The notes: generated by a model from the sequence alone, not told the origin. Positions 3,260 to 29,351 are shown, counted from the stretch's first letter. The stretch is 45,080 bases of DNA from a virus (IMGVR_UViG_2531839420_000002:67685-112764), one strand, 5' to 3'. Translations and numbers: made by a program.

Positions 3260-3548
3260 GTATCAACGATGATTGATTTCTACGTTGGCGAAATGAGTCG
3301 TAACACAGGACACCTATGACAACAAGTCAATTCAGCGTTGACCAATCACCGGCCGGTCAAGAGCGATTTAAGCATATGTCTCAGTCGGAAGTGAGGGTGT
3401 GAACCAATGCCTAATTGCAACATTTCGGAAGCGTTTATGAAACTCGGTTATGGTCCGTAACGCGCGTGTTGACCGATATAGAGCTTACTGGCAGAGAGCG
3501 ATTATCCGCTGTTCTGAAAAGCTCACGAGTTATAATCAGCGCTGACTT
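3260..3548. promoter_or_regulatory. Divergent control region with three operator-like palindromes (3260, 3329, 3533)
   Basis: NNNTCA-N4-TGANNN copies, e.g. TAATCAGCGCTGACTT overlapping TATAAT at 3531; AT-rich intergenic DNA. Confidence 0.65.
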
Positions 3549-12597: not shown

Positions 12598-13134
12598 GTG
12601 AGCGACGAAACCACTGCCCCCAGCGAGCCCAAAAAGCCCCTGCTGGACGCCGAGCAGCTCCAGAAGGATCTGGCCTTCTCGGATCATGACATTTCCGCCG
12701 CGATGATGCGGCAGGCCAGCCTGTTTGCGCACTATGCGGTGATCGCCGCTCAGGCGCAGAAGCGCTACGACACCGCCAAGCTGGCTGCCGACATCGTGGA
12801 GTCCCGCGTGGACAAGCGTCTGCGCGACGAATACGCCCAGGCCGGCGCCAAGATCACCGAGGCCGCCCTCGGCAAGGAGATTTTGCGCGATCGCGAATAC
12901 GTCGAGGCCCAGAAGAAGGTCAACGACGCCCGTATGATCGCCGACCTGGCCAAGAATGCTCTGGAAGCCTTCAAGCAGCGCAAGGATATGCTGGTGCAGA
13001 TTGGCGTGGCGCTGCGCGAGGAAGCCAAGGGCGAATTGTTCCTCAAGGGTCCTGCGGCCCGCGAGGAGGCCCAGCGCGATGTGACGCGCGACCGGGCCGC
13101 CCGCCTCGTGTCGGAGAACCGCGAAGCCGCGTAA
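12598..13134 (+). CDS. Helical protein, possibly a UvsY-like recombination mediator
   Basis: GTG start after AACGGAGATAGACCC; coiled-coil character; lies before the SSB-like gene. Function is an inference. Confidence 0.55.
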   Translation: MSDETTAPSEPKKPLLDAEQLQKDLAFSDHDISAAMMRQASLFAHYAVIAAQAQKRYDTAKLAADIVESRVDKRLRDEYAQAGAKITEAALGKEILRDREYVEAQKKVNDARMIADLAKNALEAFKQRKDMLVQIGVALREEAKGELFLKGPAAREEAQRDVTRDRAARLVSENREAA

Positions 13135-18636: not shown

Positions 18637-18716
18637 CAATCAGCGTTGAATGATTTTGCCGCTTCACATGCCCCACGGGGCGCGCTATAACGGGGTTGTT
18701 CAGTCAGTGATGATTG
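18637..18716 (+). promoter_or_regulatory. Promoter of the TIGR-like locus bracketed by two operators
   Basis: TTCACA(18663)-N17-TATAAC(18686); operators at 18637-18652 and 18701-18716. Confidence 0.65.
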
Positions 18717-18725
18717 AACTCTGAA

Positions 18726-18769
18726 GAGAGACCAAACGATGAATGTTGCCCAGAGTGCCGGTGTCTCTC
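18726..18769 (+). ncRNA. TIGR-like stem-loop guide unit 1
   Basis: GAGAGAC/GTCTCTC stem enclosing CCA-AACGATGAA-TGTTGCCCA-GAGTGCCGG-TG. Confidence 0.85.
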
Positions 18770-18790
18770 GAACGGAAAGAAGGAGTTAGA

Positions 18791-19342
18791 ATGTCGATTT
18801 CAGCAGCAAAAGCTGTCGCGCCTGTCGTTACGACCGCGCCGAGCGACGTGATCAACGACATTGCAGACGATCTGATCATGCGCCACAAGTCCTATGAAGA
18901 CGCAGCGCAGGAATTGATCAAGAAGTTGATCGGGTCCACTCCCGTCAACGGTTACATGCGCTTGCTGATAGAAGACGGCGCTCTCGCGAGAATTCACAAC
19001 GCGGCAAAGCGCAAGCGTGAAATGCTGGGGCGTTCGCTGCCGAAATCCGCGATGCCTGCCCCCGCGCCCACCGGATCTCGTTCGTTCTCCAGTCTGGTCA
19101 AGGCTTCCGTCGTGACCACCGGGCGGAAGTTTCTCGACGAGTGGCTGGTTGAAGGTCGTCGGCTTGGCGATCTGACGCTCGAAGAGGTTCGTGCCCAGGC
19201 GGAACTTTCACGCAGCAGGGCCAAGGGGCTTGAGCGTCGGGCCAAGTTCTATTTCGCCATCGCTGATCTCGGCTCTCCCACCGCCCTGGTGCGTGAAGTG
19301 CTGACGGACGAAATGGCCGGGAAGATTTTGGACGCTCTGTAG
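18791..19342 (+). CDS. Unknown protein embedded in the TIGR-like array (candidate accessory/effector)
   Basis: AGGAG RBS, ATG 18791, 183 aa; lies between guide units 1 and 2. Confidence 0.75.
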   Translation: MSISAAKAVAPVVTTAPSDVINDIADDLIMRHKSYEDAAQELIKKLIGSTPVNGYMRLLIEDGALARIHNAAKRKREMLGRSLPKSAMPAPAPTGSRSFSSLVKASVVTTGRKFLDEWLVEGRRLGDLTLEEVRAQAELSRSRAKGLERRAKFYFAIADLGSPTALVREVLTDEMAGKILDAL

Positions 19343-19351
19343 TCACGAGTT

Positions 19352-19520
19352 AGGTCTTTGGAGACCAAGCACAGAATGTTGCCCAGCACCATCGCGTCTC
19401 TAAAGACCTTCAGATTTTGAACCAGTAGCGCATTGTTACCCAAGGATGACGTGTTCGACCAATAGTGACGCGCTGCTACGGATTTCATGTTACCCAGAAA
19501 CCGAGTGCGGCGCGTCACTA
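19352..19520 (+). ncRNA. TIGR-like stem-loop guide units 2-4
   Basis: Units at 19352-19409, 19417-19458 and 19463-19520; each stem encloses CYA-N9-TGTTRCCCA-N9-YG. Confidence 0.88.
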
Positions 19521-19538
19521 CAGAACGGAGATAGATCA

Positions 19539-20255
19539 ATGAACCTGAGTGATCTCGTTATTCAGATCCAACTCACCTACCGCCAGCGCAAGCAGCTCCA
19601 GATGGCGCAGAACCGTATCGTTCTTCAGCTCAAGGCGCTCGCTCGCGCCGCCGTGGATGGTGACAAGGATCGTGCCGGCGTGATCGTCGATCGACTGATC
19701 GCCAACAAGGTCCAGAAGGCCGAGGACGTGGAAATCGCCGTGGGTCTGTCACAGAATTACGGTGCCCTGTTTGCTGCGCACGACGGCATCGCGAGCGACT
19801 GCGCCAAGCTTGGCAAGGAGCTGGAGAAGCTGGCGAAGAAACTCCCGGTTGCCGAATGGGTCGCCACTCAGCGCGGCGTTGGCATGACCAATCTCGCCAA
19901 TATCATCGGCGAGGCGGGCGACCTGGCCAACTACAACAATCCCGCCAAGCTGTGGAAGCGCATGGGGCTTGCGGTGATCGGGACCGAGCGACAGCGTAAG
20001 GTGGCCGACGCCGAAGCGGCGCTCGTTCATGGCTACAACCCCGTCCGGCGCTCGGTCATGTGGAATGTCGGCACCTGCATCATCAAGGCCGGTGGCGCCC
20101 TTAAGACGCTTTACGACGAGCGCAAGGTCTACGAGGCCGGCAAGAGCCCGGATATCACCAAGATGCTGGCCCATCGCCGCGCCCAGCGTTACGTCGAGAA
20201 GCGCGTTTTGCGCGATCTGTGGCGGGCGTGGCGGGGAGAGTTTGCGACGGCATAA
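19539..20255 (+). CDS. Nop/IS110 C-terminal-domain RNA-binding protein lacking a nuclease domain (TasA-like)
   Basis: Coiled coil followed by RGVG..LANIIGEAGDLANYNNPAKLWKRMGL..YNP..R..AHRRAQR..KRVLRDLWRAW; no DEDD RuvC or HNH motif; flanked by guide-like units. Confidence 0.8.
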   Translation: MNLSDLVIQIQLTYRQRKQLQMAQNRIVLQLKALARAAVDGDKDRAGVIVDRLIANKVQKAEDVEIAVGLSQNYGALFAAHDGIASDCAKLGKELEKLAKKLPVAEWVATQRGVGMTNLANIIGEAGDLANYNNPAKLWKRMGLAVIGTERQRKVADAEAALVHGYNPVRRSVMWNVGTCIIKAGGALKTLYDERKVYEAGKSPDITKMLAHRRAQRYVEKRVLRDLWRAWRGEFATA

Positions 20256-20265
20256 GCCGATCGCG

Positions 20266-20506
20266 GGGCGAGACCAGAGAACCCATGTTGCCCACCCCAA
20301 CGGTGTCTCGCCCACAAGTTTCCGACGAAAGTCGGAGGAAGATTGACCAACCAACCCCCGTTCCCCATGCCGAGGCTGTCAATCTTCCATAATTTAGCGA
20401 CCAGACTCGCCATGTTACCCAAAATCAGCGTGTCGCTAATCGTTGTGAAGAGAGTTGCGCCAAAAGGCAAATGTTGCCCAGGGGCCACCTGCGCAACTCT
20501 CTTTAC
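20266..20506 (+). ncRNA. TIGR-like stem-loop guide units 5-8
   Basis: Units at 20266-20313, 20337-20388, 20394-20439 and 20445-20506; same CCA-N9-YGTTNCCCA-N9-TG core with different stems; GAAA hairpin at 20321-20336. Confidence 0.88.
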
Positions 20507-20569
20507 TTGCCGCTTTATTCTATGTTTATTCTGCATTAAGTTAAGTCATTCTTGATTTGAGGGACGAAG

Positions 20570-23991: not shown

Positions 23992-24154
23992 CCCGTTGAG
24001 CGAACTCCTTGATAAGGAGGCTTGGCAGCAGCTTCAGGACGAGGCGCGCACTGCCAACGACTTACAAAAGCAGGGCATGGCGCGCACGGAAGCGCTGCGC
24101 TGCGCCAAGAGACTGATTGAAAAATCGAAGAAGGAGACTTCGTGTCATGCCTAA
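23984..24154 (+). CDS. Small hypothetical protein
   Basis: GGAG RBS; overlaps both neighbours. Confidence 0.45.
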   Translation: MRSPLSELLDKEAWQQLQDEARTANDLQKQGMARTEALRCAKRLIEKSKKETSCHA

Positions 24155-24518
24155 GAAGATCGACAAGAAGCAGGTTCGCGAGGATCGCGAGGCCCTGGCG
24201 AATGCCTTCCCGCGGACGTTCATGAGCAAGGGCGTTTCGGTGAAGCATCCGCTGGAGGTGGGAATTCATCGCCGGCTGATCGCCATGGGTGTTCGCGGAC
24301 TCGACGGTGAGAAGATGTCGGCCAAGCGCGTTCGGGCGGCCGTCGCCGATTATTGCAGCGGGCCGAAATATGCCTGGGGAATGCTGTTTACCCCCTATCG
24401 GATCAATCTCGAAGGCAAGGTCGTCAGTTCTGTAGCCCAGGAGAACATCGAACACGCTCGGGCTTATCTGATCAGGCGCGGCTTGATGATCCCGGTGGCC
24501 GAGGAAAAGTCGGCGTGA
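24147..24518 (+). CDS. ProQ/FinO-family RNA chaperone
   Basis: FPRTF..PLEVGIH..VRAAVADYCSGPKY..RINLEG..V..EHA matches the FinO/ProQ pattern. Confidence 0.8.
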   Translation: MPKKIDKKQVREDREALANAFPRTFMSKGVSVKHPLEVGIHRRLIAMGVRGLDGEKMSAKRVRAAVADYCSGPKYAWGMLFTPYRINLEGKVVSSVAQENIEHARAYLIRRGLMIPVAEEKSA

Positions 24519-25862: not shown

Positions 25863-28800
25863 ATGGGTTACGTTTTCAAAATCCGCCCCTTGCCGGAAGC
25901 GCGCAGCTACTTTGCCGGCATCGGCAAGGCGGTCGCCGATCGCACTGTGAACCGCAAGATTACTCGTCGTCTGGACCTTCCCAAGCAGGTCCCCTTTTCC
26001 ATTCCCCGTGACGACTCGACCTCGCTGGACGCGCAGATTGCGGCCCTGGCCAAGTCCAACGGTCACGCTTTTGAGGGTGACTATCACGTCGAGTTTGGCG
26101 ACGACGAGGTGGTTCAGGGCTTTTATTGGGCCATCGGCGAGATCGTGACGGAGGAATGGGCAGACGTGGCCAGGCGCGTCGCGCTGGGTAACGCCCTGCT
26201 GCATCCGAAAAAGGACGCCCCGTTCGTCGGTGGCTTCCTCGACACCAACGTCTCATTCACCTCCGAGCAGCGCATCGAATTCGATCGGATGCACCATCAT
26301 CTGCGGCAGGCGTCCCTGTTGATGTCCGGCCGCCACCTCCAGCACGGCGATGAAACCCAGCCTGATCGTCCGATGGAGGTGTTCACGAATTGTCTGGAAT
26401 ATTCGACCCGTATCCTGACTATGGAGTATGGCCCTGTTGAGATCGGCAAGATTGTCGGTCAGACCGTGACGGTCATCGCCGGCGACGGTCAGCCACGTCC
26501 TGCCATGATCAACGCTCACGGCGAGCAGGATCTTTACGAGATCACCTTTCGCTCGCTCACTGGTGGCGGTGGCAAGTTCCGCCGCACCGTGAAGGCAACC
26601 GCCAATCACCGCTGGAAACTGCGCGACGGCTCCATCACTGCCTCGCTGAAGACCGGCGATGTGCTGACTCCCATTCATGCGGATGTTGGCATGAACGAGG
26701 CGGCAGTGGTTCACGGCTTGATCTTCGGTGACGGCACGGCTCACAAGGGTCGCCGCGACAATTATCGTCCCGGCATTTCACAGGGTCGCACCTACGCCAG
26801 CATTCGCGTTTGCAAGCAGGATGCGGTGCGCGATGAGGTTCATGGATGGCTGGACGCCGCCGGTTATCGCTACACCACGCCGCCCCACGCCAACGGTGAT
26901 CGCGTCTACTATATCGGCAAGTTCGAGCACGCGAAGGAACTGCCTTTCACGCGCGACCCCGAATACATCGCCGGGTTCATTTACGGCTGGTGGCTGGCTG
27001 ACGGCTACAAGGGTCAGGATCGTTGCCTGGAAATCTCGACCTCCAGTGAAATGGCGGCCGAATGGTTGGATGAGCACGCAGCTTACGCCGGCTTCAATGT
27101 GACCATGCACCGCGTCATGGAGCGCAAGGAAGGCGATGGCTCCTTCGCCAACGGCAAGGACTTGCATATCATTCGCCTTCGCAAAAACGTGGAGTGGAAG
27201 GTCGAGTCCATCGAGCACCTGGGCAAGGCCCCGGTTTATTGCCCCGAGGAGCCGGTCACTTCGACCTTCGTGCTCGCCAATGGGTTGCTGACTGGCAACT
27301 GCTCTAGCTCGGCCCTGTCCACCATTCTGTTCAAGCTGCTGCTGTCTGGCTCGGGCGTCGGTCGCGCCTATGACGACGACCTGATGGTTGTGGACTTCAA
27401 TCACATGCCTATTATCGTTCCGGTGATCGACTGGAGTCACAAGGACGTTCAGAGCGGAGAGATCACTGGCTACCTGACCGAGCGCGACGCGCGTCATCTC
27501 TATGCCGGCCGCGAAATCCACTATTTCCGCGTTCCTGACAGCCGCGAAGGCTGGGCTAAGGCGATCGAGCAGATCGAAAAACTGGCGTTCCTGCGCAAGC
27601 GCGAAGCGGTGCTGATCCTCGACTTCTCTGACGTTCGCCCCCGCGGCGCCGCGATTATGGGGATGCAGGGTCGCCCGGCTTCCGGCCCCGGGCCACTGAT
27701 GCAGGCGATCGGCAACGTCGGCCGGCTGCGCGACGCCGGCATGAAGCCTTGGCGCGCGACGATCTACGCCGATCACTATCTGGCCGAATGCGTTCTGGTC
27801 GGCGGCGCCCGCCGGGCCGCTCGTATGGCGACCAAGTTCTGGAAGGACGCCACGATCTTCGAGTTCATCGAGCTGAAGCGCGGCGGCTTCCTGTGGTCGT
27901 CCAACAACTCGATCACGATCGACCAGGAGTTCCGTGATCGCGTGGAGAACGTCTGGGGTTGGGTTCAGCTCAACCCCGGCGAGGACCCGCTCAAGGCTCG
28001 GTCCCTCATCGGCTGGCCCATCTTCGATAAGTGGGATCGGCACGCCTGGAAGGTCATGCAGGAGGCCCTGAAGGCGTCCTACTTCGATGGCACCGGCGAA
28101 CCCGGCTTCATCAACGTGGATATGCTGACTCAGAACGACGAGGGCATGGAGGTCTACGCCGACGGCATCTTCGCTGAGAGTGCGAAGTATCAGCTCGACG
28201 AGGAGACCAAGGAGATCGGCAAGGAGATCCTGCGGCGGGTGATGAACATGCCTTACCGCATGATCACCAATCCGTGTGGCGAGATCACCCTGTTGGTCCT
28301 GGGTGGCTACTGCGTCATTGCCGACGTTGTGCCTTTCCACGCCCAGGATTTGGACGACGCCGAAGATGCCTTCCGCACCGCGGCTCGGGCGCTGATCCGC
28401 ACCAACCTGATGGACAGTCTCTACAAGCGCGAAGTCAACCGGACGAACCGTATCGGCGTCGGCATTACCGGCCTGCATGAGTTCGCCTGGAGGTTCTTCA
28501 AGATCAGCTTTCGCGACATGGTGAACCCCGTTTTCCACGGCGGGCCGTGCGGGTGGGGCGTCGATCAGCTTGAGCTGATGGCGACCGACATGGACCCGAG
28601 CGTTCGCGCTGGCGCCTTTTGGCTCACTCTGTCCCGGTTCAAGCGGGCCGTCGTGGACGAATGCGAACGCTACGCCTCTGAGCTGGGCGTGACTGTGCCG
28701 CATACCAACACCACGATCAAGCCGGCCGGCACCACGTCCAAGCTGTTCGGCCTGTCTGAAGGCGCTCATCTCCCGGCGCTGCGCGAATACCTGCGTTGGG

Positions 28801-29351
28801 TCCAGTATCGCAACGATGACCCGTTGATTGCGAAGCTGGAAGAGCAGGGTTATCCGGTGCGTCGCCTGCGGACCTACTCGGGAACCACCATCGTCGGCTT
28901 CCCGACCGCGCCGGTGATCTGCCAGCTCGGAATGGGCGACAAGCTGGTGACGGCGCCCGAGGCGACCCCGGAGGAGCAGTTCGAGTATCTGCGCCTGCTG
29001 GAGCGCTTCTGGATCATCGGTGTCAAGGAAGACGGTTTTACCCCGCTGTCCGAAACCGGCAACCAGGTCAGCTACACCCTGAAGTATGATCCGAAGGTGG
29101 TCAGCTTCGAGGACTTCCAGCGCGCCATCATCGAGGGCCAGTTCACCGTCCGGTGCTGCTCGGTAATGCCGTCGGTGGATATGACCGCCTACGAGTATCA
29201 GCCCGAGGAACCTGTGACCAAGGCGGTCTATGAGTTGATCAGCGCCGCGATCCGTTCGGGCGAGGATCAGGAGGTCAAGGAAGACGTGGACTTCGCGCAT
29301 GTGGATTGCGCAAGCGGGGCTTGCCCCGTTGATTTCAACAAGGCTGCCTGA
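25863..29351 (+). CDS. nrdJ: Class II (B12-dependent) ribonucleotide reductase containing an intein
   Basis: SGSGVG, DSREGW, ASGPGPL, TNPCGEI, TTIKPAGT and C-terminal CASGACP; no NrdB nearby. Confidence 0.88.
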   Translation: MGYVFKIRPLPEARSYFAGIGKAVADRTVNRKITRRLDLPKQVPFSIPRDDSTSLDAQIAALAKSNGHAFEGDYHVEFGDDEVVQGFYWAIGEIVTEEWADVARRVALGNALLHPKKDAPFVGGFLDTNVSFTSEQRIEFDRMHHHLRQASLLMSGRHLQHGDETQPDRPMEVFTNCLEYSTRILTMEYGPVEIGKIVGQTVTVIAGDGQPRPAMINAHGEQDLYEITFRSLTGGGGKFRRTVKATANHRWKLRDGSITASLKTGDVLTPIHADVGMNEAAVVHGLIFGDGTAHKGRRDNYRPGISQGRTYASIRVCKQDAVRDEVHGWLDAAGYRYTTPPHANGDRVYYIGKFEHAKELPFTRDPEYIAGFIYGWWLADGYKGQDRCLEISTSSEMAAEWLDEHAAYAGFNVTMHRVMERKEGDGSFANGKDLHIIRLRKNVEWKVESIEHLGKAPVYCPEEPVTSTFVLANGLLTGNCSSSALSTILFKLLLSGSGVGRAYDDDLMVVDFNHMPIIVPVIDWSHKDVQSGEITGYLTERDARHLYAGREIHYFRVPDSREGWAKAIEQIEKLAFLRKREAVLILDFSDVRPRGAAIMGMQGRPASGPGPLMQAIGNVGRLRDAGMKPWRATIYADHYLAECVLVGGARRAARMATKFWKDATIFEFIELKRGGFLWSSNNSITIDQEFRDRVENVWGWVQLNPGEDPLKARSLIGWPIFDKWDRHAWKVMQEALKASYFDGTGEPGFINVDMLTQNDEGMEVYADGIFAESAKYQLDEETKEIGKEILRRVMNMPYRMITNPCGEITLLVLGGYCVIADVVPFHAQDLDDAEDAFRTAARALIRTNLMDSLYKREVNRTNRIGVGITGLHEFAWRFFKISFRDMVNPVFHGGPCGWGVDQLELMATDMDPSVRAGAFWLTLSRFKRAVVDECERYASELGVTVPHTNTTIKPAGTTSKLFGLSEGAHLPALREYLRWVQYRNDDPLIAKLEEQGYPVRRLRTYSGTTIVGFPTAPVICQLGMGDKLVTAPEATPEEQFEYLRLLERFWIIGVKEDGFTPLSETGNQVSYTLKYDPKVVSFEDFQRAIIEGQFTVRCCSVMPSVDMTAYEYQPEEPVTKAVYELISAAIRSGEDQEVKEDVDFAHVDCASGACPVDFNKAA
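26391..27299 (+). mobile_element. Intein with LAGLIDADG homing endonuclease (303 aa)
   Basis: TN|CLEYSTRILT ... ATANHRW ... GLIFGDG ... GWWLADG ... VYC...FVLANGLLTGN|C. Confidence 0.92.

Follow-up and report, generated by a model that had tools for sequence, protein, structure and literature searches.

The window, as the whole stretch of 45,080 nucleotides (nt) analysed here is called, forms the end of a 112,764-bp contig (C60) of a 3.8-Mb assembly rated 100% complete. Between recA and sbcD-sbcC it carries a cassette in which eight hairpin guide-RNA (tigRNA) units are laid out 1+3+4 around two genes, one encoding a TasA protein of 238 amino acids (aa) and the other a 183-aa protein referred to here as the partner. 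The features of the cassette and its edges were as follows:

18640..18649, no strand assigned: palindrome core TCAGCGTTGA, upstream of the cassette promoter, a likely operator
18663..18691, + strand: candidate sigma-70-type promoter, TTCACA-17 nt-TATAAC, read from the sequence
18701..18716, no strand assigned: weak copy of the palindrome close to the predicted start site, three mismatches to consensus
18726..18769, + strand: tigRNA unit 1, pattern match with a 6-bp stem
18791..19342, + strand: partner gene, 183 aa, mostly helical product, AAGGAG upstream, between units 1 and 2
19352..19409, + strand: tigRNA unit 2, pattern match with a 13-bp stem
19417..19458, + strand: tigRNA unit 3, pattern match with a 5-bp stem
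19463..19520, + strand: tigRNA unit 4, 13-bp stem, CTA as box C
19539..20255, + strand: tasA, 238-aa Nop-domain protein with no nuclease domain, assigned by Table S1 identity and 9MTY matches
20266..20313, + strand: tigRNA unit 5, pattern match with an 8-bp stem
20337..20388, + strand: tigRNA unit 6, pattern match with a 10-bp stem
20394..20439, + strand: tigRNA unit 7, pattern match with a 7-bp stem
20445..20506, + strand: tigRNA unit 8, 15-bp stem with a T-rich tract after it
20543..20558, no strand assigned: strong palindrome copy before sbcD at the right edge of the cassette, one mismatch to consensus

When the whole 45,080-nt window was searched with the pattern CYA-N9-YGTTNCCCA-N9-YG, eight exact matches were found, all on the + strand between 18732 and 20491, compared to a mean of 0.40 matches in shuffled sequence. 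One more match, at 13025, was found in the window with one mismatch. The first-pass annotation had placed stem-loop units at the eight starts listed above, and a stem was found to begin at each of them. It had also described all 16 variable segments (spacers) as 9 nt long and all different, which proved correct, as no two spacers of the eight units were identical at more than five of nine positions, and its reading of CTA in place of CCA in unit 4 was seen as well. Spacers A and B of the same unit were complementary at only one to three of nine positions, indicating that they do not pair with each other. The arms of each unit paired over 9.6 bp on average compared to 1.5 bp when arms were swapped between units, and pairing of at least 5 bp was found in 2 of the 56 swapped combinations. 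The claim that the closing stems differ and still base-pair therefore held with respect to pairing, but not to the extent that all stems are unrelated, since units 1, 2 and 5 have a GAGA/TCTC stem core in common.

All eight units were accepted under the TIGRFinder stem-loop criteria, which allow CTA as box C (10.64898/2026.09.09.750476), and with their 9-nt spacers they fall within the TIGR-Tas array definition of two 8- to 12-nt spacers between box C and box D. CTT was present at the stem's base on the 3' side in three of the eight units and on the 5' side in none; the corresponding CUU motif is described as frequent, but not universal, at the base of stem-loop TIGR stems (10.64898/2026.09.09.750476). 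Elsewhere in the genome the core pattern matched twice (contigs C15 and C24), and both matches failed the 5-bp stem filter. A search of Rfam gave no match. The stem of unit 8 and its T-rich tract may double as a terminator, judging from the sequence; unit 8 was not called in the terminator scan. Likewise, the sequence at 18663-18691, a candidate for the single promoter proposed at first pass, was not called in the promoter consensus scan, which requires T at the last -10 position.

The 238-aa frame was confirmed, and neither DEDD_Tnp_IS110 nor any RuvC or HNH family was found in it by Pfam, in agreement with the earlier description of a protein lacking DEDD RuvC and HNH domains. The only Pfam family seen was Transposase_20, below threshold. 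The sequence is identical, letter for letter, to rows 5835 and 5861 of Table S1 of PMC12045711, both in cluster node18136, whose 50% cluster also holds close homologs retrieved here. Because of this identity to table entries, the protein is a catalogued TasA. In a single-sequence search, 9MTY was the sole match below E 0.001 (7e-5), and a profile made from 82 of at least 120 homologs matched 9MTY at E 5.6e-23, over residues 146-297 only. 9MTY is TaTasR, from a dual-repeat nuclease system (10.64898/2026.09.09.750476). Moreover, the Atlas model of TasA (pTM 0.85) aligned with IS110 models at TM 0.68-0.71 over 201-213 residues. The identical Table S1 sequence, the 9MTY profile match and the stem-loop geometry of all eight units together uphold the proposed TIGR-Tas-like identity, and the system is almost certainly a member of the stem-loop TIGR-TasA group. 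As such, this kind of system is already known.

Identity as an IS110 transposon was rejected, as no DEDD_Tnp_IS110 match was obtained. The tasA gene is present in one copy in the genome. Among 60 relatives only one genome (G008) was weakly matched (E 1e-6), by a 398-aa frame resembling ordinary IS110. The TasA C-terminus lies six residues past the conserved R232, and a 27-residue Y/H loop would probably not fit there. At near-invariant positions of the family, the protein deviates from E to L at residue 12, from E to Q at 24 and from E to G at 92; these losses, and a partner only 12-26% identical to its own family, suggest that this copy of the cassette may have drifted. Were translation to start at the in-frame ATG at 19446, TasA would be 269 aa long and its gene would contain unit 4, as in intragenic tigRNA loci. 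The 238-aa start is favoured because GGAGA precedes 19539; no unit lies inside this frame, and many homologs extend further at the N-terminus (median 55 aa).

The locus content reported at first pass was correct for the units and the 238-aa frame and omitted the 183-aa frame at 18791-19342 between units 1 and 2. To this second gene the main weight of the locus attaches, the system first reported being already known. Homologous loci were drawn from GTDB and IMG/VR (134 loci; 135 sources with C60). When the ORFs near tas were clustered, one large family occurred in 97 loci, and a profile of these tas neighbours, from which the window protein was excluded, matched the 183-aa frame at E 8e-21 (one-sequence scale). 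By profile search, a member of the partner family was found no more than 3 kb from tas in 116 of the 134 loci, upstream of tas and on the same strand in 114 of these. In 12 of the 18 partner-negative loci tas lies less than 1.5 kb from the start of the locus, and two of the remaining six, which have full upstream sequence, show weak matches (E 1e-4 and 0.02). With Tas grouped at 90% identity, the partner was present in 93 of 108 groups. At distances above 3 kb from tas, the partner profile matched none of 7,253 frames. Pairwise identities of Tas and partner were correlated among 93 representatives (Mantel rho 0.53; permutation maximum 0.19), and kinship among the loci makes both this test and the partner counts overstate independence.

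The same coupling was found in the reciprocal search from the partner side, which gave 30 loci, reduced to 26 when four short spurious matches were dropped. A downstream tas was present in 23 of the 26 (one as a C-terminal fragment and two cut early in the gene by the contig end); in the other three, the contigs end 135-400 bp past the partner and guide units occupy that space. This test is partly dependent on the first, as several of the 26 are duplicates or contigs already found and the query was derived from tas-adjacent proteins. The pair also occurs in a cultured phage, Rhizobium phage RHph_X2_25, with four units and adjoining a repressor. Among clusters made at 50% identity, the partner profile matched 4,387, of which 2,266 at E 1e-10, and some of the 4,387 may match only the N-terminal half. 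Frames of the latter kind were seen in 19 of 400 host-class genomes (L142-L160); they are mostly 100-230 aa long (up to 459), stand in mixed housekeeping contexts without a convincing Pfam family, and have no tas within 1.5 kb. Judged by their sequences, they are possibly a host homolog of the N-terminal module of the partner.

The partner resembled no established family in the searches made. A single-sequence homolog search retrieved only the protein itself, Pfam gave no family common to more than 1 of 61 members, PHROG and PDB sequence searches gave no match, no likeness was found between the partner and Tas profiles, and tblastn with one family member against phage and plasmid records returned nothing. 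The Atlas search gave no usable feature match, with one weak row from a ParB cluster (TM 0.33). An AlphaFold2 model (mean pLDDT 87, pTM 0.49) was helical with one short hairpin, and Foldseek against the PDB with this model returned nothing at E <=0.001 (best E 0.61). Family members average 23% identity. Among 266 members, the columns conserved in at least 85% were A, R, L, G, L and A. Because only one of these residues is charged, the pattern argues against an enzyme and would suit a binder better. The protein is basic (pI 9.6; family median 8.6).

No second gene is described for stem-loop systems in the main text of Xu et al. (10.64898/2026.09.09.750476), which has no mention of ParB, accessory or neighbor, or in the consulted parts of the text and Tables S1 and S3 of PMC12045711, in whose figs S13 and S14 the partner may appear. 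The gene is also absent from the available parts of Guan et al. (10.64898/2026.08.11.744272) and of 10.64898/2026.09.22.753630. The neighbour screen of Faure et al. was clustered at 50% identity, according to the part of PMC12045711 consulted, which would explain why a family with a mean identity of 23% was missed. Relative to the TIGR literature covered, the two-gene form of stem-loop TIGR-TasA is new. Between the sub-arrays of PlTIGR an intergenic region of about 450 nt is reported (PMC12045711, section 9), a length similar to that of a short partner gene.

The guide geometry was shared by homologous loci, as the earlier reading required. At least one unit of the strict 9-9-9 pattern was found in 82 of the 135 sources and at least two in 57, and 319 of the 321 units were on the tas strand. 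No strict CCA-type 9-9-9 unit was found in the other 53 sources, and other box motifs fall outside this pattern. Several IMG/VR loci in the series L098-L133 (for example L112) have tas and partner without CCA-type units; they may use other box motifs or have no arrays. Solitary guide-like units opposite to the tas strand, 1.6-5.5 kb away, were seen on the minus strand at L008:8343 and L038:4548. L038 and L041, which belong to different genomes, have some identical guides and others that differ, including one example in which spacer A is changed by one base and spacer B is replaced. These differences are possibly a record of spacer turnover.

The element that carries the cassette combines phage and plasmid functions. 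Among 106 ORFs of the contig, PHROG identified structural genes (terminase, portal, major head, tape measure and tail fibre) together with a replication initiator, two ParB-like proteins, an integrase, a DNA polymerase, a primase, a helicase and SbcCD. The SbcD of the element shares 38-45% identity with its counterparts in Rhizobium phages RHph_N1_10 and RHEph10 and in SSU5. The phage-plasmid setting suggested at first pass is thus supported by the gene content and by the SbcD kin. The first 40 bases of the contig repeat at 110,358, and several sites are found a second time after an interval of about 110,358 bp; an ungapped alignment of the 2.4-kb end overlap fails. We take the contig to represent a circular element some 110 kb in size. 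In 32 kin loci found through SbcD, neither tas nor the partner was present; recA was in place in 31 of the 32 and the gene preceding the cassette in 17, where its distance to sbcD was 150-1,910 bp compared to 1,939 bp here. These findings show that the slot is variable and that the cassette is accessory cargo. No flanking direct repeat was found among the largest 20 of 51 repeat families.

A dispersed palindrome, AAGTCA-N4-TGACTT, has 30 sites with no or one mismatch on the contig compared to 0.03 expected, and its core TCAGCGTTGA gives 34 strand-hits where the rest of the genome predicts 0.3. Sites with exactly one mismatch, the class of the copy before sbcD, number 16 compared to 0.03 expected. 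The three-mismatch class, to which the copy near the predicted start site belongs, is barely above background (31 compared to 19.6 expected). Intergenic copies in the window lie at 3533, 6091, 12509, 13151, 18640, 20543, 25809, 29439 and 40112. From its sequence and distribution, the palindrome is likely the operator of a regulon of the phage-plasmid, and we infer that the cassette is under the element's own regulator.

Taken together, the locus probably encodes an RNA-guided, non-cutting means of repressing rival mobile DNA, assisted by a non-catalytic 183-aa helper. The cassette would be transcribed, its expression being governed by the dispersed operator, and the eight hairpins would be cut into single guide RNAs. 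These would be taken up by a TasA dimer, whose binding to 18-bp DNA sites, without cleavage, would block transcription and so silence genes in competing phages or plasmids; the 183-aa neighbour would act as helper of TasA. On relatives, processing into single units and 2:1 protein:RNA complexes are published; the arrays of PlTasA are processed (PMC12045711, in the part consulted), and MbTasA binds target DNA and represses (10.64898/2026.09.09.750476). The MbTasA reporter set-up lists only Tas and guide (10.64898/2026.09.09.750476), and repression by these two alone implies that the helper is not needed in every clade.

As to what the helper would do, binding or extending the TasA complex comes first, at slightly short of an even chance. 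A part in guide maturation is appreciably less likely, though it ranks as the chief alternative, given that stem-loop Tas have no Y/H loop and that guides from the extended BlTasA locus were sharper. A role as regulator or inhibitor is somewhat less likely again, and one in spacer renewal is improbable. More generally, a large clade of stem-loop TIGR-TasA systems could, at a little under even odds, be a two-protein machine in which the upstream subunit either matures guides or makes bound TasA an effector, thereby standing in for the absent Y/H loop or the absent nuclease domain.

Targets were predicted as spacer A plus the reverse complement of spacer B, a geometry derived from the 8-nt 3' overhang of TasR (PMC12045711, in the part consulted). 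In the 3.8-Mb assembly, searched in four geometries with gaps of 0-2, the eight guides had no such site with 0-1 mismatch. When 301 unique guides were searched against the 134 loci and C60 (4.35 Mb), matches were at chance level and the right geometry was no better than the wrong ones. The same was found for the 32 kin loci, in which the best target had three mismatches. In 83 genomes of the family, seven guides (unit 6, with 5.6 chance matches expected, was left out) gave no exact and five one-mismatch matches compared to 7.2 expected; the five fall in genes for a chemotaxis receptor, a terminase and MlaD, and in two unassigned stretches. Since no match exists inside the cell, other phages or plasmids are the likely targets. 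Rival mobile DNA as target is thus reached by exclusion, a step that would be weakened if TasA tolerated mismatches.

The terminase match is that of guide 2, with 17 of 18 bases in a terminase large-subunit gene, L225:1293-2975 (G480:C57:29258-29275), and a silent mismatch. The site lies immediately ahead of a Walker A-like motif. With total matches at chance level, it is a lead only. In exact searches of IMG/VR, guide 2 had one match, in a 607-aa frame distinct from the L225 terminase stretch, and guide 4 had none.

In the strongest rival explanation, the same TIGR-TasA machine would serve to regulate the host, or the element that encodes it, by imperfect matching, with two or three mismatches or mainly through one spacer. 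Every guide has three-mismatch sites in the genome (60 in total at gap 0), and asymmetric engagement led by spacer A is reported in the available part of Guan et al. (10.64898/2026.08.11.744272). In contrast, two-mismatch sites in the assembly were no commoner in the right geometry (3, 4 and 4) than in the wrong ones (2-7), and the 301 unique guides showed no enrichment of two-mismatch sites in their own loci (2 compared to 4, 1 and 1). Two copies of the dispersed palindrome are matched at their edge by unit 7's spacer B, but the other half of these sites is mismatched at six to eight of nine positions, and targeting of the palindrome by unit 7 was rejected. Overall, imperfect-match regulation is unlikely, at roughly a one-in-five level of belief.

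The explanation that the partner is itself the missing maturation factor, binding or cutting the precursor and passing single hairpins to TasA, is less probable than regulation through imperfect matches. It would fit a TasA that ends six residues past its last conserved position and a basic partner that co-diverges with Tas; guides were sharper from a BlTasA locus extended by additional genes, and stem-loop Tas have no Y/H loop (10.64898/2026.09.09.750476). However, the partner has no conserved catalytic-looking residue set and no nuclease fold match, and stem-loop arrays of other clades are processed in E. coli (10.64898/2026.09.09.750476; PMC12045711, in the part consulted).

A decaying relic, either a drifted TIGR cassette or a truncated IS110, non-working and with the 183-aa gene as an unrelated passenger, is very unlikely. 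The loss of some near-invariant TasA residues, the empty target searches and the PHROG label of the 238-aa protein, 'transposase', would be in keeping with it. Against this, both frames are intact with ribosome-binding sites, the eight stems pair despite their different sequences, the protein has no DEDD domain and is listed in the Tas table of PMC12045711, and partner and tas are coupled in both directions (116 of 134 and 23 of 26). Least credible of all is an RNA-guided aid to recombination or partition, in which TasA would bend or mark DNA and recombination proteins of the element would be brought in by the partner, since the position between recA and sbcD-sbcC and the proposal of Faure et al. 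that TasA assists integrases, with their tasParB operon (PMC12045711, in the part consulted), are countered by a variable slot whose cassette is missing from 32 kin loci, by a pair that adjoins a repressor in RHph_X2_25, and by a ParB family match in none of 61 partners.

The closest described systems are the stem-loop TIGR-TasA of PlTasA (PMC12045711 and Guan et al. 10.64898/2026.08.11.744272, each as far as available) and of BlTasA and MbTasA (Xu et al. 10.64898/2026.09.09.750476). As in these, a solo Nop protein is found with hairpin units that have box C and D, two 9-nt spacers and a 9-nt loop, and sub-arrays flank tas on both sides; such arrays and repression by TasA are published (10.64898/2026.09.09.750476; PMC12045711, in the part consulted). 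Unlike them, as far as these sources describe them, the locus has a conserved second gene inside the array, CUU at the stem's base in only three of eight units, and no unit within the 238-aa frame. The tasParB-tasA operons (PMC12045711, methods section 44 and fig. S14, as far as seen) are similar in having an accessory gene with tasA and guides between and around the two, but tasParB has dual-repeat arrays and matches ParB domains. The partner did not group with it, having stem-loop arrays, no PDB match and no ParB family in its 61 members. TaTasR (9MTY) shares the Nop homology (E 5.6e-23) and the CCA/UG boxes; in contrast, the present system has no RuvC domain and stems replace the edge repeats. 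The likeness to IS110/IS1111 bridge recombinases is limited to the C-terminal RNA-binding fold (TM 0.68-0.71) and the sub-threshold Transposase_20, whereas there is no DEDD domain and no single bridge RNA, and the locus has eight separate guides and one genomic copy.

The maturation of guides without a Y/H loop and the renewal of spacers are named as open questions for stem-loop systems in the TIGRFinder preprint (10.64898/2026.09.09.750476). A partner coupled to tas in both directions and co-diverging with it is a direct candidate for both. If it improves loading or repression, it would be relevant for compact PAM-free repressors. Moreover, because a near-complete element sits in an assembly rated 100% complete, self- and host-targeting could be tested here, which is impossible for most TIGR loci.

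Two other genes were observed downstream of the cassette. A 1,162-aa ribonucleotide reductase is encoded at 25863-29351 of the window, and its PHROG match begins at residue 488; residues from about 177 to 480 resemble an intein with a putative homing endonuclease. A ProQ/FinO-family RNA chaperone gene lies at 24117-24518, 3.6 kb downstream on the same contig, and its product could bear on the handling of small RNAs.
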